Shown here: positions 11-60,494 of the stretch, piece after piece
Layout of the letters: the number at the start of each line of letters is the position of its first letter
How positions within the stretch are numbered: position 1 is the stretch's first letter
Assembly (NCBI GenBank): GCA_964019425.1
Contig: OZ025796.1
Location: 434,001-498,000, forward strand
Length of the DNA: 64,000 bases
Direction of reading: 5' to 3'
From: Flectonema sp. DT1601
Lineage: Eukaryota
Notes under the pieces: model-generated
Seen by the model: the letters and a program-made list of their open reading frames with translations, nothing else
Told to the model about the DNA's origin: nothing
Databases searched by the model: none
Made by a program: the position numbers and the translations under genes

Positions 11-1210
11 ATGGAACTAAAAGAAGGTAATTTAGTACGAACAATATTTAAAGACCCGAATGGAAATTGGAATAAGGGACTTGTGTCTGACACTCAATCA
101 GCTTTTTATCCAGCTAAGTTTGTAGCACCGTTTCCACAACCGAGATTTTTACACCAAGCTGCTTCAACAATAAAAGGATTGTTTATAGCAGGTGGACGTG
201 ATAAGACGTTACCGTTAAAAACTGATGACGAACCAAAAGCTCAAGAAGACTGCTGGCTGTTGGACTACAACTCATATAAGTGGACGGAAATTGAACTTCC
301 GCCAAACGCGAAAAGTTCATTAGTAATGTCAAAGGGAGTACCTCAGGTATCGAGTATTATTGGTGATAATATAACTGTTGTACTTCCTTGGAAGCGTCTA
401 AGGTATTCATACAATGCTGTTGGAGATATGAGCAATCCAACTGTTACGGAACTAAATCATACTAGTGCACCGAAATCTGTTGACGATGAATGGGATCCAA
501 CCCCAGAAGTAGTTCACACTAACACCAACCTTAGTACTGATAGACGTACTGGTCCTGGTCCTGGTGGTGGTGGTGGTGGTGGTCCTGGTGGAGGTAGAGA
601 AACACGAAGGGAATCTGATGACCACTCAAAGAGTAGATCGTCTAGTAAAAAAACAAAAAAAGGAAAGAACATTGTTGTTTACGTTATCGCTAATAAGAAT
701 GAATCATCGCCCACTGCATCAAAAAATATCCCTTCTCCAGGATACGAAAGACATCTTTCAAGTAGCTCAAGTGATGATATCACCAGAGGAGAGAGAGTGA
801 CAATGCCACCGTCAGTTCGTAGTGATAGTGTGGTAGGGTACCAACAATCACCAAGAGCTGGTTATTATCAATCACCTGGCAGGTACTACAGAGCTGGTGA
901 GGAAGTCTTACAGCCAGCTCACTTAGCACCTTGTCCGGGAACGTCTACTTCACCTCCGAGGTCACGTCTTCATCGAATTAATGAAGGTAGTCGTTCCCCT
1001 CATTGTTCACATTCACCTTCAACTGAAGTGTATCAATCACCCTCATCACCTAAAGGATTTTATCCGAACTCTGCTCCTTCAGTTAGAATAGATCAGTCTG
1101 GTTTACCTCAAATTCAACAAAGTAGAGAGAGGCAATTACGTGTTACGAATCTTTCTCCAGCTCCTCCTGAGCGCCCATCACATGTTCCTCCGGGTGGTGT
1201 TTATAACTAA
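11..1210 (+). CDS. Kelch-repeat protein with a Ser/Pro-rich disordered C-terminus (possibly 5'-truncated by the window edge)
   Basis: Kelch-type blade PRFLHQAAST...LFIAGGRD...DCWLLDYNSYKWTEI followed by a low-complexity tail; the frame is open to the window start. Confidence 0.65.
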   Translation: MELKEGNLVRTIFKDPNGNWNKGLVSDTQSAFYPAKFVAPFPQPRFLHQAASTIKGLFIAGGRDKTLPLKTDDEPKAQEDCWLLDYNSYKWTEIELPPNAKSSLVMSKGVPQVSSIIGDNITVVLPWKRLRYSYNAVGDMSNPTVTELNHTSAPKSVDDEWDPTPEVVHTNTNLSTDRRTGPGPGGGGGGGPGGGRETRRESDDHSKSRSSSKKTKKGKNIVVYVIANKNESSPTASKNIPSPGYERHLSSSSSDDITRGERVTMPPSVRSDSVVGYQQSPRAGYYQSPGRYYRAGEEVLQPAHLAPCPGTSTSPPRSRLHRINEGSRSPHCSHSPSTEVYQSPSSPKGFYPNSAPSVRIDQSGLPQIQQSRERQLRVTNLSPAPPERPSHVPPGGVYN

Positions 1211-7060: not shown

Positions 7061-7816
7061 ATTTGTTTATTTTCTTTTTTTTTTTGTATGTTCAATAAGC
7101 AACAGTTATTTTGGAAGAAAAATTATTTAATTATTACACGCTTGCAAACGTTAAAAAGCAGTTTTTTTTTCTCTTTGTTTATTTCCTACAATATTATAGA
7201 AATCAGATAATTTTTTTATTCTTTTTTTTTTATATAAAGTCATTCTCTCCTGTAAAAGTATCGAGTCTGGTCAACAAACAAGCGTCTTAGTTGCCGTCTG
7301 TTTTTTGTTTTTTTTTTAAATATATTTTTTTATTAACATACTCTCTATTTAGTTTAACGACCTTTTGCTCGTTGAACCCGGAAAATGAGGGAAACAAAAA
7401 AAAGAAAATATAAAAATTCACCCAACCGGAATTTATTTGCAAACAGTTTTTTCTACAACCCCAACAGTGACTTGAATAGTTACTTCACAAAAAAAAAAAA
7501 AAAAAAAAAGGCTAAGCCAAGTCATCACCGTTAGTCCACTGGTATCTATAACAAATTGTCAAGTTATCGTTTTATGTTTTGATCCAGTTGTGTGTTTTTT
7601 TGCAAAGTCAAGCCATAAACCCCTGCAGTGCGTGGTCCACGGGGTCAATTTGACTTGACAGCATTTTTTTTTCTTCTTCTGGTAGTTTATTTGAAATATG
7701 TGATTTTGTGTTGACGGAATCCAGTTATAATAATTCATGTCTAATTAGTTGTGTGTTAACCCTTGATTTATTTATCCAAGTACCCTCTGCAATACTGAGA
7801 CTCAGTCTCAGTGTTC

Positions 7817-7985
7817 TGACTGACTGACTTCTACACCATAACTGATGATGAGAGAATAGAGGTAAAGAGGTATATGGATTAGTTACTTATGCTAAGTTGT
7901 GTATACAAGCTTAGCCAACTGTATCTAAAAACTGATGTTAAATTATCTTATTTATATTTCTTACGATAATCAGACGTACATCCCC
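7817..7985 (+). repeat. Degenerate copy of the hammerhead-associated short retroposon family
   Basis: GACTTCTACACCATAACTGATGA...GAGAATAGAGGTAAAGAGGTATATGGATTA matches 58876-59077; the GAAA segment is deleted. Confidence 0.75.
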
Positions 7986-36804: not shown

Positions 36805-36839
<35 letters not shown>

Positions 36840-36954
36840 ATTTAACAAGTATTGTAAGAACGAAAAAGAATGTTGGCAGCACACGTAAACCTCCTTTAGC
36901 TTTATCAGTTTAAGTCGGTTCACGGTTTCGTGCACAAACAAAAAAACTCACAAA

Positions 36955-37842
36955 ATGTCGAAAGTAGATATCCCACAAGATTTCGACTGGTCAACTGTCG
37001 AGGTGCCTGAGATCCCGGAAGGGGCGCATCCGTCAGCGACAGACCAATGTTGTGTGTTTCCGTTATGCGGAAAAATACATACGGACGGCACGAACTGTCA
37101 CCGATGCGGTGAAATGGGCGAGACGGAATGTCTCAAGTCCCGTTTAGGCAACGACGAAGTCACCCAAGCCAGGTGGTTGCCTGAGGCATCCCAGGAATGG
37201 GTGTGTCCTCCATGTGGGTTTGTGCTCCGGAATGGAGCCCCATATGCAATGCTCGTACCGGAAGGGCGACATTTTAACGCAACGATGCCAGTTGCGGAAA
37301 CAGTTAAGGAATTAACTGTAGTGGAGCGGGTGACGATGGATCCACGTAGGGTCGTCACTTGGGTGGAAAACCTAAAAACCCCGTCTGGCCTGAATTACGT
37401 GTTTGCAGGTTTGCAACAGCGTTACGGCACAGTCAACGGAAAAGCAATCCCGGAGACTGCTGTCGAGGGCGGGGGAGCAGTGTCGCACGAAATGCGGCAC
37501 TTGCTGAGAATGATTGACGGCCTGCTACCGGTCTCCAACAGCTCAGGGCACGTCAGGCAGACGTTGCAAGTGGCGGTGGACCGCATGGAAGATCTGCTGT
37601 TCTCGACGAGGAACAGAAAGATGACCGGCGCCTATGAGGGGTACCTCAAGACGTACGGATACGGGGAGTATACGGAGCGACTAATTGGCCTCGCGATGAA
37701 GGAGACGATGAGAACCGCGCTCCCGGGACAAACCCACGAGGGTGACCAAATGAGCGGTGGCGACCGTAAACGTCATTTTTCCGGGAAGGGAGCTGGAGGA
37801 AATTTTTCCGGGAAGGGAGCTGGAGGAAAGAGGAAGTATTGA
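36955..37842 (+). CDS. ORF1, Gag-like protein with an N-terminal PHD-like Cys finger
   Basis: First ORF inside repeat A; CVFPLC..CHRC..EC..WVCPPC; basic Gly/Lys C-terminus. Confidence 0.8.
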   Translation: MSKVDIPQDFDWSTVEVPEIPEGAHPSATDQCCVFPLCGKIHTDGTNCHRCGEMGETECLKSRLGNDEVTQARWLPEASQEWVCPPCGFVLRNGAPYAMLVPEGRHFNATMPVAETVKELTVVERVTMDPRRVVTWVENLKTPSGLNYVFAGLQQRYGTVNGKAIPETAVEGGGAVSHEMRHLLRMIDGLLPVSNSSGHVRQTLQVAVDRMEDLLFSTRNRKMTGAYEGYLKTYGYGEYTERLIGLAMKETMRTALPGQTHEGDQMSGGDRKRHFSGKGAGGNFSGKGAGGKRKY

Positions 37843-40385
37843 ATGGAGGAAAAACCACACGATGTGTGGGGGCCTGTTCCGGAAGGGACGCAAGGCAAAA
37901 AGCGGATCGGAAGACCGCCAAAAAAATCACTTGCCATAGTGAACTCGGAGAAACTCGAGGAACTCGAGAGTCAGCTGGACCTGACACTGACCGGTTGTTT
38001 CGCCGAATCGACACAAGCATCGATAAGATCGGTAATGCGAAATTGGATCCCCTTCGATGCAACCATATGTGCGATAAAACCGGATATGCCGCCGACGCGG
38101 AGTTTCCTCCTGTGGCTACAGGCAAAGATCAACTTGGGAGAGTTGCAACCACAGTCGGCGAACCAATACTTGGCAAGTTTTCGCTCGGCTGCAATTCCGC
38201 CCACAGCTGCATTCCGGAAGGCCATGACAAGGTCAACAGACGAAAATCAGCGAAGGGAGGGAATGCTGACGAAAATACGCACCAAGGAAGAGATCACGGA
38301 AGTAATCCGTCGACAGGAAGGGATGTATGTAGCGGTGTTGGCCACACAATGGTCTCTGGCGGCGAGATTTATCGACCTGATGCTACTGAGGAGACGGGAC
38401 ATCCGGGAAGTCAGGAACGGTTACCTAATTGGCTTGGTCGGGGGGAAGACCGACAAAACGAGACGAGGTCAATGGATTCTGGTAGCAAAAAATGGCTCTT
38501 TATTCCGCGTGGTGTTGCAATGGTTGGCAACAACGAATGGCGAAATGGTATTCACGGGTTTGAACCGGTCGGGATACAACAGATGGCTGGAAAGACATCT
38601 CGACACCACGAGCCACTACATACGTCACAGTGCACTCACGTATGTCGCGTTGGAGTCGTCGGAACGGGACGCTCAGGCGATGGCGCGGCATGCATCAGGG
38701 ACGTCAACCCAGTTCTACATACCGCCGGAGACTTGGACCTCGACTCGGAATACGATAAAAGCGGCCGCACTACTGCAGTGAAAGCTATCCATGACAGACC
38801 TTTTTGGGCTTCAAAATTGGAAGCAGGATTCCGCATGTACGACTACGCGGAAGGATGGCTAACGGGGATAACTGGAACACGTTGTCCGCGAACATGTTAT
38901 GACGGAACCATATCTGGAATAAGAATGGAACCGGTAAACATGGAACTGCTAGTGGGAAGCTATCCGAACCTGAGAACAAACATGAGATGGATTGCAGATC
39001 CGAACTTTGTCATCCAAGTGATTAACAATTCGCCACAAGAAGACGAATCTGGGATAGGCGCAAAGAATGTCCAATTAAAACCTCATACCGAACGCATGCT
39101 TGAGCTTGGTTTCGCCGAACCATCTCCTAGATCGACGACGAATAGGTTCATGCACTCTGCTTTTCTCATACCGAAAAGTACACCTGGACAATTACGTTTC
39201 ATCCTAAATTGTAAGACTATTAATGAGTTAACAGCTTATACCTCGTTACCGCCATGCAGGCTACCGTCTTACGAAACGATAGTGGAAACCTTGCTACCAC
39301 GTAGGTACGCTTGCGAGTTTGACTTTACATCGTATTTCTTTCAATTCCCGATTCCTGAAAGAATTAGACCGTTGTTCTCTTTTCGAGTAGACAAGAAGAT
39401 CTACCGGATGACACGTCTACCGATGGGGTACAGAGGTGCACCTCAATTAGCCCAGGCTGTTCTTCTGAATCTGATCGAAGATGCAATAGATGGGAGGGAT
39501 GTGTCCGGCATTGGGTGGATTGACAATGCCATCTTTGCGGCGGATGATATACAGGTTCTACAATCGGTTAGAGATAGATTCCGAACTCTATGTCTGAAAT
39601 ATTCAATTACGATAGGCGCGGTCACAGAACCCAACACATACATAATCACATTAGGAATAGAAGCTGACTTGACGAGGAAATGTTGGAAACTAAAGGAAAA
39701 ATGGGTCAAAGCGGTCGCTGAACCAGGGAAAATGATCTTGGACTCACGCGTGAACCTACGACGTAGTTACTGGAAGATTTCGGGAATCATTTTGTGGAGA
39801 CGTCATGCGCTAAGATTACGTCTACACGAGGCGACAGAACTCCTGATGGGAATGTCTGAACTGATGCAGGAAGGCGACCCGAAATCTAAGGTTTTCTGGA
39901 ACACAGCAGTAAAAATCTCAGAGGAGTACATGAACTCTCTTAGGCTCGAGTTCAGGGAGCTTGTGAAGAACGAATGGGTGCGGTGGAATAAGCGTAGCTA
40001 TGAAACAGAAATGACTTTCGTATCTGATGCAAGTACAAAAGCCTGGGCATTTGTAGTGGGAAACTCTTATCGGAGAGGACGCTTCCCGCGCGATATAGTG
40101 AACATGGGGATTTTCGAAAAGGAATTTTTCGCAGTAGTCAAGGCCATTGAATATGTAGTGACAGAGTTAAAACTGCAGAGTTGCAGGGTGACGGGACATG
40201 TAGACAACAAGGGAGTTATCGGTTCGTTGCACCGTGGCTATTCTCTACAACAAAATGTACAACCCATGTTACGGACTATTCATCGACTGTTGGACAGGTC
40301 TAGTTCAGTTCTGCACGTCGAGTACGTGGCGAGCGAGGACAATATTGCTGACAAGCACACTAGACTGGAAGATGAAGCATACTAA
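37839..40385 (+). CDS. Pol: reverse transcriptase plus RNase H, with an N-terminal region overlapping the whole YR ORF in the -1 frame
   Basis: RT motifs FLIPKS..LRFILNC, FDFTSYFFQ, RLPMG, WIDN, LG; RNase H motifs SDAS, EKE, VDN, NIAD. The frame is open from 37770; the true start is uncertain. Confidence 0.93.
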   Translation: MNGGKTTRCVGACSGRDARQKADRKTAKKITCHSELGETRGTRESAGPDTDRLFRRIDTSIDKIGNAKLDPLRCNHMCDKTGYAADAEFPPVATGKDQLGRVATTVGEPILGKFSLGCNSAHSCIPEGHDKVNRRKSAKGGNADENTHQGRDHGSNPSTGRDVCSGVGHTMVSGGEIYRPDATEETGHPGSQERLPNWLGRGEDRQNETRSMDSGSKKWLFIPRGVAMVGNNEWRNGIHGFEPVGIQQMAGKTSRHHEPLHTSQCTHVCRVGVVGTGRSGDGAACIRDVNPVLHTAGDLDLDSEYDKSGRTTAVKAIHDRPFWASKLEAGFRMYDYAEGWLTGITGTRCPRTCYDGTISGIRMEPVNMELLVGSYPNLRTNMRWIADPNFVIQVINNSPQEDESGIGAKNVQLKPHTERMLELGFAEPSPRSTTNRFMHSAFLIPKSTPGQLRFILNCKTINELTAYTSLPPCRLPSYETIVETLLPRRYACEFDFTSYFFQFPIPERIRPLFSFRVDKKIYRMTRLPMGYRGAPQLAQAVLLNLIEDAIDGRDVSGIGWIDNAIFAADDIQVLQSVRDRFRTLCLKYSITIGAVTEPNTYIITLGIEADLTRKCWKLKEKWVKAVAEPGKMILDSRVNLRRSYWKISGIILWRRHALRLRLHEATELLMGMSELMQEGDPKSKVFWNTAVKISEEYMNSLRLEFRELVKNEWVRWNKRSYETEMTFVSDASTKAWAFVVGNSYRRGRFPRDIVNMGIFEKEFFAVVKAIEYVVTELKLQSCRVTGHVDNKGVIGSLHRGYSLQQNVQPMLRTIHRLLDRSSSVLHVEYVASEDNIADKHTRLEDEAY
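37843..38781 (+). CDS. Tyrosine recombinase
   Basis: Catalytic set R (LAARFIDL), K (GGKTD), HxxR (SHYIRH), H (ARH) and Y (TQFY) in the expected order and spacing. Confidence 0.93.
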   Translation: MEEKPHDVWGPVPEGTQGKKRIGRPPKKSLAIVNSEKLEELESQLDLTLTGCFAESTQASIRSVMRNWIPFDATICAIKPDMPPTRSFLLWLQAKINLGELQPQSANQYLASFRSAAIPPTAAFRKAMTRSTDENQRREGMLTKIRTKEEITEVIRRQEGMYVAVLATQWSLAARFIDLMLLRRRDIREVRNGYLIGLVGGKTDKTRRGQWILVAKNGSLFRVVLQWLATTNGEMVFTGLNRSGYNRWLERHLDTTSHYIRHSALTYVALESSERDAQAMARHASGTSTQFYIPPETWTSTRNTIKAAALLQ

Positions 40386-41237
40386 GAAATGATACACAAG
40401 AAGAACGAACACCGCATCGCATCGGTTTATTATCTCATAAAAGACCGTTATTCTCCCAACTTTGATAGATACCATATCAAACTAGACACGACGGCCACGA
40501 ACAATCCACTGGAAAGGGGTCCGGTTTCGTGCACAAACAAAAAATCACAGTGTTATATCAGTATTTTCTGTATAGTTGAAGTTAAAGCCAATTCTTTTTT
40601 GCATTTAACAAGTATTGTAAGAACGAAAAAGAATGTTGGCAGCACACGTAAACCTCCTTTAGCTTTATCAGTTTAAGTCGGTTCACGGTTTCGTGCACAA
40701 ACAAAAAATCACAGTGTTATATCAGTATTTTCTGTATAGTTGAAGTTAAAGCCAATTCTTTTTTTTTCCTCTTTGAGGTGATTATGCCATTATCTCGAAG
40801 TTAAATTACGTATTGCTAACTCCTGTAAGTATTTGTTTCTTTTTAAAGTTTTATTAAATTGCACATCATCTTCTTATGTTGGTATGCAGTTCTTGCTTCC
40901 AACATAATGTTTTTGTTGACGAACCTTGTGAACTGTACTTTTATGTCTTTGATATTTATGGTGTGAAATGTCCTGTTTGAACTCGTCATTGTAGCTATTA
41001 TTGTTATTAATTCACGCGAAAAAAAAAAATAGAAACAAACGGGAAAACTTTTATTCGTGCAAGTGTTCCAGCTTTAGCGAAACGGTTTTTTTTTTTTTTT
41101 TTTTTTTTATAGTATATCACACCTGGTCATACAGCTGAATGCAAAAAAAAAAAAAAAAAAATTCCCCCCTCCCCTTTTTTTTTTTTTTTTTTTAAAATTA
41201 ATCTTCTTGTAGACTACTGATACTAACTAACCTTATT

Positions 41238-49834: not shown

Positions 49835-50829
49835 TAATGATGATAAACTTCTTTCTGGATCCAACTCTAATCCCTTTCTGGGACATGTTGATACCAAAGA
49901 AATCGAGCTTTTTAACAGTCTGAATAGTTCTCGTTGACTTCCCTCTTCTTCTCTTCAAACACTGAGGACTACTTCCCTTCTCTTCACTTCAAGTGTGAAG
50001 ACTCATTTCAGTTGTGAACCACTAATTGAAGGCAGCTCTTTAATGATGATAAACTTCTTTCTGGATCCAACTCTAATCCCTTTCTGGGACATGTTGATAC
50101 CAAAGAAATCGAGCTTTTTAACAGTCTGAATAGTTCTCGTTGACTTCCCTCTTCTCCTCTTCAAACACTGAGGACTACTTCCCTTCTCTTCACTTCAAGT
50201 GTGAAGATTCATTTCAGTTGTGAACCACTAATTGAAGGCAGCTCTTTAATGATGATAAACTTCTTTCTGGATCCAACTCTAATCCCTTTCTGGGACATGT
50301 TGATACCAAAGAAATCGAGCTTTTTAACAGTCTGAATAGTTCTCGTTGACTTCCCTCTTCTCCTCTTCAAACACTGAGGACTACTTCCCTTCTCTTCACT
50401 TCAAGTGTGAAGACTCATTTCAGTTGTGAACCACCAATTGAAGGCAGCTCTTTAATGATGATAAACTTCTTTCTGGATCCAACTCTAATCCCTTTCTGGG
50501 ACATGTTGATACCAAAGAAATCGAGCTTTTTAACAGTCTGAATAGTTCTCGTTGACTTCCCTCTTCTCCTCTTCAAACACTGAGGACTACTTCCCTTCTC
50601 TTCACTTCAAGTGTGAAGATTCATTTCAGTTGTGAACCACTAATTGAAGGCAGCTCTTTAATGATGATAAACTTCTTTCTGGATCCAACTCTAATCCCTT
50701 TCTGGGACATGTTGATACCAAAGAAATCGAGCTTTTTAACAGTCTGAATAGTTCTCGTTGACTTCCCTCTTCTCCTCTTCAAATACTGAGGACTACTTCC
50801 CTTCTCTTCACTACAGGTGTGAAGACTCA
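49835..50829. repeat. Tandem array of a 206-bp unit, ~4.8 near-identical copies
   Basis: Units start at 49835, 50041, 50247, 50453 and 50659. Confidence 0.95.
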
Positions 50830-52961: not shown

Positions 52962-53841
52962 AGTGCGCTCTTAAACAGCGTTACTGAATTAAATTTGACT
53001 GTGTGTGCAGTCGTTCGCAAAGTAAGCTACAGACAGACAGACCTTCGTGGCTTCTTCAAATTTGTAGACTTATTCAATTTTACATTCGATTTTAGGACAA
53101 ACGTTACCGTTACTACACTGTTATACCAACTCACTTCTTTCTCTGCCCTCCCCCCCCTATTATGTATTTCTTTCCTTTCAATTTTCTTTTCTTTCTAATG
53201 CTTCCGCCTCTTTGTCTACTATGGAATAAATAAAACGGAAATAAATTGTTTACTTTTACAGGTAGACTTTTTATTTTCCCCTCACTACTTTTTTACATTT
53301 GATTTTTCTCTTTTTTTTTCTCCCCTCTCTTTTTTAACATGTTTTCTTTAAAATCTGTTTGAATTTATTGCAAATAGGAAAAAAATATAATTAAAAAATT
53401 GTACCGACAGGGGCTGCCCTGTAGTACGTGTTCCCCTTCCCTGAATTCCCATGTATTCGACGGCATGGATTTTTTGATATTTATTTTGGTTATTCTGCTA
53501 TGCAGTACTGCCTTTTAGATCATGCTGTTATGTAATCCCCTCTGGCTTTAGTAATTAAATATTGATGTGGACTGAACTTAAGTTACTTAGGGGTGCGTCT
53601 CATTCACTGTAAGGTTGCGTTACTTACACTTTAGACGTATTCCCGCGCTCTCTTCGCGATGGGATTGTTCCATTTACACTTTTTTTTTTTTTTTTCCGGC
53701 TCGGAGTATCTTTAGCTGTTTCAGAGCAAAATTGACTCAAAAAAAAATAAAATAAAATAAATGTTGCTATTTACGTCCGAGAGGAAATTTCTTTTTTTAA
53801 AATTGTTTTTCTTCTTCACCCTGCCACCCACCACACAATGG

Positions 53842-54012
53842 TTGACTGATTGACTTCTACACCATAACTGAGAGAGAATAGAGGTAAAGAGGTATATGGA
53901 TTACTCTCGAAACCTAAATAGTTACTTCAAAAGGCTAAGTTAAGCATCACACCCAGTCACTTGTTTTATGACACAATACATTTGTATTTTACGTACAAAA
54001 TCAAACAGTTGA
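53842..54012 (+). mobile_element. Copy of the hammerhead-associated short retroposon with a broken core (CTGA-GA)
   Basis: Colinear with 58876-59077; ends AAACAGTTGA just before a C-run. Confidence 0.8.
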
Positions 54013-56724: not shown

Positions 56725-57036
56725 CCAGGGTAAAAAAAGCGCCTGGTATATAACTGAGAAAACAAAACCTAAAAAAGGAAAAAAAAAAAAAAAAAAAATG
56801 GAGATCAGAAGTGCATGAGTAAGAAACAGCCACCAGGACAAGAACAAATCGTAACTAAAAACAAAAAGCACAAAAAAAAAAAAAAAAATAATTTATTAAA
56901 TTTCAATTCATTTGTTGTTAAATCTCTTCTCCTTTCACAGCACATCACTATGTCACGCAATCGATAAGTAACCGTAGCTAACTCATGCAGCTATTCTCGA
57001 CTCACTTTCATCTTTCACAGATCTATATAATCAAAG

Positions 57037-57921
57037 ATGCAACTCACAGCGATAATAACTTCATTGACGATCGGTTCTCTTGCTGATTGGGTATCTCAAT
57101 GCTCTGAGTTTAAATCATCTGCAACAGTCTCCAGTACCAGTGGAGCTACTCTAGAAGAAGCTTTGCAATCAGGTGCCGAAGTACTTTCACGGCTTGGAGC
57201 TCTCCGTGTGGACGGCGTAGCAGACAAAAGTGAATGTGATATACTTCTGAATAAGCTTGAGGAGGAATTCCCAAAAAATAAAATCAATCCCCACATGAAC
57301 GTCGGGATAGCAATAGACGATAAAGTTGACGGAGTGATGGAGACCTCAATAGAAAGGTTATACCCATTAATAAAACAAATTGTGGGGGAAAACGGACTCG
57401 TCGAAGAACTCGCTTTTATGATAAACGATCCTGGAGCAACGTACCAAACTTGGCATGCTGATACTGTGTACACTCCTAAGACTGCGAAAATGTATTCTTT
57501 TTTTATTGCACTCGAGGACATCACTATTGACATGGGTCCTACAGAAATAGCACCTGGCATCACATCTCCAGAGATGGTAGAAGAGTGTGACACTGATATG
57601 ACAAAACACAAACTTTCATTTTGTAAAAATCTCATTTCGTCAGTTCCAAATGTCGGAGCTACGATGAGAGCTGGTGATGTTTTAATCATGGATTCGATAT
57701 GTCAACATCGAGCATCTGAAAATATTTCTGATAAACGTCGTCGACTCTTCTACTACACAATCGTATCAAGAAAGGGTAAACGACCTGATGGATCAACTTT
57801 TACGTTGATTCATCCTTACAAAAATAAGTTGCAGGTAGCAGACTACACTCGTTGGAGTGACGTCAGACTTCCAAAACGTGCGCCTCCCAAAATAATTGAA
57901 GAGGAGGACGAAGACATGTAA
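57037..57921 (+). CDS. PhyH-family Fe(II)/2-oxoglutarate dioxygenase with a likely signal peptide
   Basis: QTWHADT (HxD), FIALEDITIDMGPT, GDVLIMD..QHRASEN...RR. Confidence 0.85.
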   Translation: MQLTAIITSLTIGSLADWVSQCSEFKSSATVSSTSGATLEEALQSGAEVLSRLGALRVDGVADKSECDILLNKLEEEFPKNKINPHMNVGIAIDDKVDGVMETSIERLYPLIKQIVGENGLVEELAFMINDPGATYQTWHADTVYTPKTAKMYSFFIALEDITIDMGPTEIAPGITSPEMVEECDTDMTKHKLSFCKNLISSVPNVGATMRAGDVLIMDSICQHRASENISDKRRRLFYYTIVSRKGKRPDGSTFTLIHPYKNKLQVADYTRWSDVRLPKRAPPKIIEEEDEDM

Positions 57922-58511: not shown

Positions 58512-58875
58512 TCTTCCCCCTGTTCTACAGGTCAAGGACCGCTCAACCTGATAATCCTCGACTTACCAGATCGACGACGTATTCTGGTCAATAAGACAAA
58601 AAAAAAAAACAAAAAAAAAAAAAACAATATGATTTCTTCTTTTTTTCTAAACGTACCTTTTTTCTTTGATTAACAATTACGAAATATTATTTTTTCAGTC
58701 AAGTACTTTGATATTAATTTTTGTTTTTTGTTTATTTTTGTTACTGTTTTTTGTATTGTTAAAAGTTTCACTCACTTGTTCCCCGTTATAGCAACTTTTT
58801 TTTATATTCCAATAAAATAAACAAAAAAGTAACTACACTCCAGTCGTGCAAACTGGAGTGCTTCTGTCACAATAA

Positions 58876-59077
58876 TTGACTGATTAACTTCTACACCATA
58901 ACTGATGAGAGAATAGAGGTAAAGAGGTATATGGATTACTCTCGAAACCTTAAATAGTTACTTTAAAAGGCTAAGTTAAGCATCACCAGTCACTGTATCC
59001 TTAACAGATTGTTAAATTATTGTTTATGTTAAATGTGATACAAAACAGTTGTATTTTACAAATTACAAACAATCAAT
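58876..59077 (+). mobile_element. Most complete copy of the hammerhead-associated short retroposon
   Basis: Contains the 5' head with CTGATGA...GAAA and the shared 3' module. Confidence 0.75.
58896..58951 (+). ncRNA. Candidate hammerhead ribozyme in permuted topology
   Basis: CUGAUGA 58902-58908, stem II GAGA/UCUC, GAAA 58944-58947; the candidate substrate AGGUA-UAUGG (58925-58934) pairs with ACCU and CCAUA. Confidence 0.5.
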
Positions 59078-59506
59078 CACCCTTATGGCAACCATGATTT
59101 CTTGTGTCTAACAACCAAAAGTAAAAAAGGAGGAAAAGAAAAAAAAAACTCACCCAATCAAGAAAATTTGATTGATGTTTTTTTATTATTTTCTTTTATA
59201 GTAGGGCAAGGTCCTCGCTGGCACGAGTGTCAGTTTTGTACCCTTACCTTACATTATTCCTTCTCGCAACAAAAATGACCGAGAGAATCAATCCATGCTT
59301 TATCATACAAGACGAACGCCTGCTCTCGTTGAGAGTCTTTCCTTTTGGAGAATCTTAGCAATCCTGTTTTGAAGGAAACTTTTTTTTTCTTCTCTGAAGT
59401 TCTCAAAATAATAAAATGAAAAAAAAAAAAAAGAAAAGGGGATTGAAGTCCAAGACAACTCTTAGCCAGCCAACCAAGGCCAGCTGACTAACAGAATTCG
59501 ACTTTG

Positions 59507-59566
59507 GTAATGATCCTGCTGCAGGTTCACCTACAGCAACCTTGTTACGACTTTTGCTTCTTCTAG
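59507..59566 (-). rRNA. Isolated ~60-nt SSU (18S) rRNA 3'-end fragment
   Basis: The reverse complement reads GAAGCAAAAGTCGTAACAAGGTTGCTGTAGGTGAACCTGCAGCAGGATCATTAC, a euglenozoan-type helix 45 variant. Confidence 0.9.
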
Positions 59567-60494
59567 CTGAGAAATATTGCTGGGATTCGAAACGCTCTAA
59601 GCGGTTGTCCCTTTTTGCGGGTTTTGCGGCTTTGATTTTATTTCTTATTTTTAATTTTTCTTTTTTCCCTCCTTTTTTTTTTTTTTTTATTCACTTCGAG
59701 AAATGGATTTATTGTTCTGCTTTGTCTAAAAAACAAGTAGTAAAGCGGTACCCTTTGAAAACTTTTAATTTTACAACAATGTACACCCGCCTTCCTACTA
59801 CCGCAGTATTGGGGACCCTCAGAAGAACCACCCGGTACTCTTTGAGTGTCTACCTAACCGATTCTCGGTGGTCTGATGGACTTGCTAACTTACTCAAGCG
59901 GGAAAAAAAAAAAAAAAAAAGAAACCAGACCAGCATATTTATTTTGTTGTTTCGATTCCGTATTTATTTTTTATTTTTTATTGTTATTTTTTTTTTATAC
60001 CTACAAACCATTGGTCTAATTTTGTACCGGTTGTCGCACAAACAAAATGAACCTGTGAGTAAGAAAGTAAAAAGTGAAGTTTGTTACTTTTTTTTCTCAT
60101 CCTTCATCTAAGCTATTTATCATTGTTGTTGTTTGCTTTAGTGTGTCTCTCTACGTGACGTATATTTTGATACTTAGCTGAGATGGAGAAAAGGATTCTT
60201 TTTTTTTAAAACTTCCATCAATGAGTTTAAACGAGACAAGAATTTCTTTTGTTTTTAGAAATCTTTTCTTTTTTTTAATAATATAATTCTACTTAAATAG
60301 TCTAATTATAAATTTCACGATCGTGACACACACTTAAAAAAAGAAAAAAAAAACAAAATTTTTGTTTTGCCAAGAAAATCTGCCATCGTTGCAGTGGGAG
60401 TTAGTTTTTTTTTCTTTCTTTTCCTTCATTGATAGCAGTCATAACTTATCTATTTTATAGAGTACCCCTCCTCCCCCACATCCTATAGAATAAG

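Follow-up and report, generated by a model that had tools for sequence, protein, structure and literature searches.

A predicted type-CSG hammerhead ribozyme in a dispersed repeat of a diplonemid nuclear genome

The 64,000-nt stretch of DNA analyzed here (the window; Flectonema sp. DT1601, contig OZ025796.1, positions 434,001 to 498,000) comes from the nuclear genome of a eukaryote, a diplonemid, which is a marine flagellate. The Rieske protein encoded in the window shares 60% identity with its Diplonema papillatum counterpart and about 41-43% with trypanosomatid homologs, and every long ORF that matches Pfam is on the + strand. Approximately 950 nt 3' of a PhyH-family gene (57031-57921), and 5' of a PH-domain gene (60489 onward), the window contains the core of a predicted hammerhead ribozyme in which the substrate strand lies inside loop II. 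This locus raises the question of which kind of ribozyme, if any, it encodes, and by what means the sequence carrying it spreads.

Core, strands and four helices of the motif

An earlier note on this DNA had claimed the conserved core letters and a 4-bp stem II, and all of these elements were found. Its claims that stems I and III lack partners outside loop II, and that AGGUA-UAUGG within this loop supplies them, with one extra A, were also confirmed, the former within about 200 nt for both stems. The motif ends at 58951 as proposed there, but the start had been placed at 58896, and the true start is 9 nt upstream, at 58887 (Table 1). On both strands of the window, only the core at 58902 joins CUGAnGA and GAAA to a 4-bp stem II, with the stem II of one other core being 3 bp long. 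The blocks occur in the 5'-to-3' order core (C), substrate (S) and GAAA block (G), with linkers of 3 and 5 nt, and a fourth helix (the I/II helix), which was sought only once the layout of the Naiad elements described below was known, connects stems I and II.

This layout corresponds to type CSG, a non-circular permutation of the hammerhead described by Eckert et al. 2023 (PMC10085705), in which blocks C, S and G follow in turn and a helix unites stems I and II. The CSG ribozymes published there comprise two unique but similar sequences (5 hits) in soil metagenome DNA, neither being reported from a known organism (PMC10085705). Both span 66 nt, and they cleave in vitro at the predicted site, with rates of 0.004 and 0.026 per minute (PMC10085705). 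By eye, CSG-1 has a I/II helix of 7 bp, stems I, II and III of 6, 5-6 and 5 bp, and linkers of 2 and 4-5 nt (PMC10085705). The authors graded the evidence for biological relevance of type CSG as weaker (PMC10085705).

Comparison of the window motif with CSG-1 shows a similar length (65 nt), similar helices (I/II, I, II and III of 7, 5, 4 and 4-5 bp), and the same strand order. All CUGAnGA, GAAA and NUH core letters of type CSG are present. The window motif differs from CSG-1 and CSG-2 in its unrelated helix letters, its weaker helices, the replacement of GUC by GUA, and its location in a eukaryotic nuclear repeat rather than in soil metagenome DNA, and from CSG-1 in the one extra A before C3. 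Stem I sits one inserted base from the core, within the 1-2 allowed for type CSG. By its sequence, 58887-58951 is a member of the known, very rare type-CSG hammerheads, with predicted activity. The diplonemid host group and the mobile-element context are new aspects of the CSG motif. The earlier note had correctly set a substrate placed in loop II apart from types I-III, but missed the published type CSG (PMC10085705).

Three other assignments were excluded: hammerhead types I-III, because their circularly permuted order has the substrate strand outside loop II; a canonical type I with a short stem after GAAA, which has no stem I partner; and a C/D snoRNA reading of UGAUGA, for which there is no D box at a suitable distance downstream (by eye). 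A search of the window against Rfam, with E up to 1, gave 24 weak matches, none of them to a hammerhead.

Table 1. Features of the motif, copies of the carrier repeat, and four-helix examples from other sources. Positions refer to the window, except for those of L104 and L139. Helix lengths are in the order I/II, I, II, III.
Feature	Position	Strand	Remarks
Type-CSG hammerhead motif	58887-58951	+	65 nt, four helices, cleavage predicted
I/II helix, 5' strand	58887-58893	+	pairs with 58914-58920, 7 bp
Stem I, N2 strand	58896-58900	+	5 bp
Extra A	58901	+	single base between stem I and C3
Block C, CUGAUGA core	58902-58908	+	whole of block C is 58902-58912
Stem II, 5' strand	58909-58912	+	pairs with 58940-58943, 4 bp
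I/II helix, 3' strand	58914-58920	+	doubles as decoy partner of 58947-58951
Block S	58924-58934	+	lies inside loop II
Stem III strand in block S	58924/58925-58928	+	4-5 bp
Predicted cut base A58929, GUA triplet	58929/58930 junction	+	by analogy with PMC10085705
Stem I strand in block S	58930-58934	+	complements 58896-58900
Block G	58940-58951	+	stem II 3' strand, GAAA and stem III strand
GAAA	58944-58947	+	within block G
Whole repeat copy with motif	58868-59080	+	ends approximate
9-bp inverted repeat	58836-58860		directly 5' of the 58868 copy
Copy	53834-54012	+	core N7 deleted, 36-nt internal deletion, helices otherwise unchanged, C-tract at end
Copy	7817-7971	+	3-nt duplication in core; 18-nt deletion removes GAAA block (block G)
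Copy, 5'-truncated	21229-21374	+	flanks 21212-21230 and 21375-21391 near-identical
Related copy	17357-17532	+	3' half common, other 5' half; flanks 17344-17356 and 17533-17544 near-identical
Decayed partial copy	20936-21006	+
Decayed copy without ribozyme part	7471-7617	+	C-tracts flank both ends
Short 3' fragment	16767-16825	+	C-tracts flank both ends
Copy, ribozyme region deleted	14178-14244	+	weakly matched by nhmmer in two pieces (E 1.7 and 0.22)
L104, metagenome	922-973	+	11, 3, 5, 8 bp
L139, metagenome	58-107	-	9, 6, 3, 8 bp
Record preceding Naiad-2_Nbra, probably Naiad-1_Nbra			11, 5, 5, 11 bp (by eye)
Naiad-2_Nbra			12, 5, 5, 6 bp (by eye)
Naiad-3_Nbra			9, 5, 4, 6 bp (by eye)
Naiad_Hcon			12, 6, 5, 11 bp (by eye)
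Naiad_Hpol			16, 5, 5, 9 bp (by eye)

Four-helix motifs in Naiad elements and metagenomes

The four-helix CSG layout was found by eye at the 3' ends of all five strongylid-nematode Naiads in parts 14-15 of the 59 parts of the supplement to Craig et al. 2021 (PMC8557442). The letters vary among the five ends, with pairing maintained (by eye), and the extra A before C3 of the window motif is absent from them (by eye). Craig et al. describe Naiads as being without canonical hammerheads, and in their supplement 'HHR_core' or 'HHR_half_core' is the only tag on three of these five ends (PMC8557442). Other Naiad consensus ends show the order S-G-C, with the 5' strand of stem II upstream of block S, which leaves a break in the chain behind the CUGAUGA core (by eye; PMC8557442).

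Generic core-and-spacing scans gave 69 viral, at least 120 metagenome and 94 prokaryote-genome loci, numbers which are not counts of distribution, because the scan patterns differ by collection and span only some of the stem II letters. Four helices were present in none of the 69 viral loci, 2 of the 120 listed metagenome loci, and none of the 94 prokaryote-genome loci. The two metagenome loci, L104 and L139, were missed by a first, stricter descriptor, which was then relaxed to 3 bp per stem. Both are CSG motifs with sequences unlike that of the window motif. The paired total is 21 for the window motif, 27 for each of L104 and L139, and 19 for the best background. Among the 283 listed natural loci, all chosen by core letters and spacing, the window motif exceeds 281 in paired total, and the two higher ones are L104 and L139.

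L139 is a partial tandem adjoining a (TG)n-rich tract, with its first copy starting right after the core, and this tract-side partial tandem resembles Penelope-like insertions (PMC8557442). When the broken frame next to L104 was used as a phmmer query, it returned three hits, none of which was informative or a retroelement protein. In three related metagenome loci (L079, L158 and L187), hammerhead-like core words are spaced by 38 nt and stem II has 4 bp, with no clean CSG pairing.

The carrier repeat and the predicted fold

The motif is carried by a dispersed repeat of ~210 nt, which has no ORF and no poly(A) tail. The ribozyme begins ~20 nt from the common 5' edge of the repeat and ends ~130 nt short of its 3' end. 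A profile built from four copies matched eight places at E <=5e-5, plus a ninth that is weak and split, giving nine copies in the 64-kb window, all on the + strand. The earlier note had proposed a pseudoknotted hammerhead in a dispersed repeat, with a predicted cut after 58929, which agrees with the four-helix motif and the nine copies. It had also held that the cores of other copies are damaged, and this is the case for those at 53834 and 7817. An intact core is present only in the 58868-59080 copy. The helix letters are identical in the three copies that carry them, and the window copies therefore provide no covariation within the family.

The copies have variable 5' ends and a common 3' end. 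A C-tract of at least 4 follows the 3' end of six copies (7471, 7817, 16767, 17357, 21229 and 53834), and two copies (17357 and 21229) are bordered by near-identical sequences, 12-13 and 17-19 nt long, starting in the C-tract, as expected of target duplications. It is likely that the repeat moves as a retroposon. Because C-runs of at least 7 outnumber G-runs by 10 to 1 on the + strand of the window, the occurrence of all nine copies on this strand may track targets. The start of the 21229 copy, 4-6 nt past the predicted cut, was rejected as evidence for cleavage, being a single instance where several copies are truncated. No relatives of the repeat turned up when viral contigs and metagenome contigs were scanned for exact patterns.

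Perfect 9-bp inverted repeats of different sequences (58836-58860 and 7794-7812) immediately precede two of the three copies that bear the ribozyme, and are possibly fold-back scars of insertion. The repeat also occurs with a different 5' half, at 17357-17445, which recurs at 14579-14651. At ~17375-17397, a 4-bp hairpin and GUA come after GAAA, resembling stem III of type I/II, with no CUGAnGA nearby.

Several other features were observed in the window. A separate dispersed repeat (14817-14979 and 18727-18879, 92% alike) has a (TAAA)n end like the tail of a non-LTR retroposon, and further dispersed families occur at 1967-2179/8163-8381, at 5287-5483/7061-6875, and at 1291-1412/13874-14061/15860-16009/59901-60095. 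A DIRS/VIPER/TATE-like element (36829-40764) contains overlapping ORFs, with an RT (PF00078) and a tyrosine-recombinase-like ORF (by eye), and its direct repeats are split (36829-36952 and 40522-40764), with a solo repeat at 1698-1818. A 206-nt tandem (49835-50829, 4.8 copies, 98% alike) has units that start with a box C-like word and carry a box D some 80 nt further along. The 13 bases before box D complement what we take to be a conserved stretch of small-subunit rRNA, and the array is likely a C/D snoRNA array missed by Rfam. A piece of the small-subunit rRNA gene, from its 3' end, stands alone at 59516-59585 on the - strand; scattered rRNA pieces are reported in D. papillatum.

The predicted folding of the motif depends on the order in which its strands appear. 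The I/II helix was present in all eight predicted folds of prefixes ending at 58919-58947, and the switch to a decoy hairpin (58916-58920/58947-58951) occurred on adding the final bases of block G. This decoy, which uses the first of two AGGUA words, was favored by the pseudoknot-free model for the whole motif (pair probability 0.85-0.94, compared with 0.05 for the native I/II helix and 0.04 for stem III). In nascent RNA, the I/II helix would form first and mask the decoy strand, and stems I, II and III would next close around the core, giving two pseudoknots in a single molecule. To prevail over the decoy, the active fold must draw ~5 kcal/mol from stems I and II, whose stacking amounts to -13.7 kcal/mol with loop costs not yet deducted, and from the core, which is beyond the ViennaRNA model. 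The four-helix stacking sum is -31 kcal/mol for the window motif, compared with -55 for L104 and -54 for L139, the window helices being the weakest of the three motifs computed.

We consider it very probable that the motif derives from a selected CSG ribozyme, and give even chances to the prediction that the genomic copy at 58887-58951 still cuts measurably. A decayed CSG ribozyme, with an active parent and a subfamily that spread or persists without cutting, is a possible if somewhat improbable alternative. Decay would fit the features of the subfamily, namely the AU-rich helices, the decoy hairpin and the extra A, which is kept in all three copies that retain that part, as well as the weakness of the helices, the dominance of the decoy in the pseudoknot-free ensemble, and the absence of an intact core from eight of nine copies. 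However, the 58887-58951 copy retains every core letter and all four helices, the published CSG scheme tolerates 1-2 additional bases beside the core (PMC10085705), and the margin between four-helix stacking and the best nested fold (about 20 kcal/mol) resembles that of L104 and L139 (22-23 kcal/mol). The orientation of the copies is a further point in favor of decay, as they are all on the coding strand, and an active ribozyme would cut co-transcribed gene clusters, which are reported in D. papillatum. A single copy that remained active on the coding strand of genes transcribed together would cleave the precursor RNA of the host, and this may be the reason why eight of nine copies lost an intact core; ordinary decay explains the loss equally.

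Probable mobilization of the repeat and its meaning

Taken as a whole, the locus is probably best explained as a type-CSG ribozyme in a repeat moved by Penelope-like (Naiad/Chlamys-type) enzymes. Cleavage after A58929 would give the element RNA a defined end. If the parent were a tandem or partial tandem, cutting its RNA twice would free a molecule of unit length, which would be reverse transcribed and inserted at C-tracts. Unit release by two cuts is the role proposed for Penelope hammerheads.

As the partner of the repeat, we lean toward a Penelope-like element. Hammerhead cores near the 3' end and 5' truncation are shared by the repeat with Naiad and Chlamys elements, and insertion at (C)n with Chlamys, which targets (CA)n and (C)n and has non-autonomous forms (PMC8557442). 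Unlike these elements, the repeat is ~210 nt long, has no ORF, is not seen as a partial tandem within the window, and resides in a diplonemid. Such a partner can only be inferred, because none of the 17 window ORFs scanned is Penelope-like, and the literature searched yielded no mention of Penelope-like elements or hammerheads in diplonemids. Partial tandem (pLTR) or inverted insertions were not found among the nine copies in 64 kb, two of which have short inverted repeats on their 5' side. Craig et al. 2021 contains neither 'Euglen-' nor 'diplonem-' (PMC8557442).

The ribozyme could instead be real and belong to another class of retrotransposon, such as the non-LTR elements with a restriction-like endonuclease (CRE/SLACS/R2/HERO kind), which we regard as unlikely. 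The D. papillatum genome paper names LINE-, SLACS-, R2- and TATE-like genes, and 'Penelope' has no match in seven of its supplements or in the passages available; the 12-19-nt duplications, moreover, suit target-primed insertion in general. Counting against a partner of another class, the repeat has no poly(A) tail, its C-tract targets combined with a hammerhead ~130 nt from the 3' end are the anatomy of Naiad and Chlamys, and nematode Naiads show the CSG order with intact blocks (by eye).

Two groups of ribozyme-bearing retroelements were also compared with the repeat. Non-LTR retrozymes are found in animals as tandem arrays whose units bear type I hammerheads (bioRxiv 10.64898/2026.07.22.740005; PMC6765202). 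Like them, the repeat is short, non-coding and hammerhead-bearing, with a proposed dependence on Penelope-like elements, but it is of type CSG, dispersed, and in a protist host. The term 'retrozyme-like' in the earlier note suits its size and lack of an ORF, and does not extend to tandem arrays with a type I hammerhead, which are missing from the window. The ingi/L1Tc and RIME/NARTc/SIDER elements of trypanosomatids end in a poly(A) tail and have a 77-nt 5' signature that contains an HDV-like ribozyme. They resemble the repeat in their euglenozoan host, in having a self-cleaving ribozyme (predicted for the repeat), and in target duplications of ~12 bp. An ingi/RIME-type or tRNA-derived SINE was excluded, since the repeat has neither a poly(A) tail nor, at its 5' side, a tRNA head or an HDV-like signature.

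Action as a dimer or in trans, with blocks C and G of one RNA cutting block S of another, had been offered as an option in the earlier note, and is highly unlikely. The short linkers between distant helix ends fit the crystal structure poorly, and minimal Penelope hammerheads work as dimers, according to reviews. A dimer is nevertheless unnecessary, because the published CSG RNAs were assayed as cutting in cis, and here loop III is not palindromic and the window has no tandem copy. The published RNAs, with linkers equally short, cut during transcription, and no concentration series was found in the passages of the paper available (PMC10085705).

A chance arrangement of AU/purine-rich repeat sequence is highly improbable: every helix is short and the motif has no Rfam hammerhead match, but such a match is also absent for L104 and L139, and the outside examples predicted a fourth helix that then turned up, where 1,967 of 63,970 window 30-mers placed upstream (3.1%) pair over at least 7 bp. 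The four-helix descriptor, with thresholds chosen post hoc at or slightly under the observed values, gave one match in the window and none in 4000 simulated (second-order Markov) windows, 1140 of which contained a core with stem II, and 23 a nested substrate as well. The nested pairing by itself is modest evidence, because four unrelated sites on the + strand of the 64 kb also reach 9 pairs; with loop II shuffled, a nested partner of at least 9 pairs arose in 907 of 200,000 cases (0.45%).

A broader reading, which we put forward tentatively, is that CSG is the hidden ribozyme of Naiad/Chlamys-type Penelope-like elements, from nematodes to Discoba, and that the repeat, with an active ribozyme, derives as a non-autonomous form from a Penelope-like lineage of diplonemids not yet reported, in which the cut defines the RNA to be copied. 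No paper linking CSG or SGC hammerheads with Naiads was found, in a search that most subscription journals lay outside. The diplonemid copy, the two metagenomic examples and the five Naiad ends would together provide the missing covariation, host range and role of type CSG, and would revise the claim that Naiads lack hammerheads (PMC8557442). They would also point to Penelope-like elements and hammerheads in diplonemids, and the diplonemid repeat, with its predicted cutting, likely gives the rare CSG type a known host and a job.
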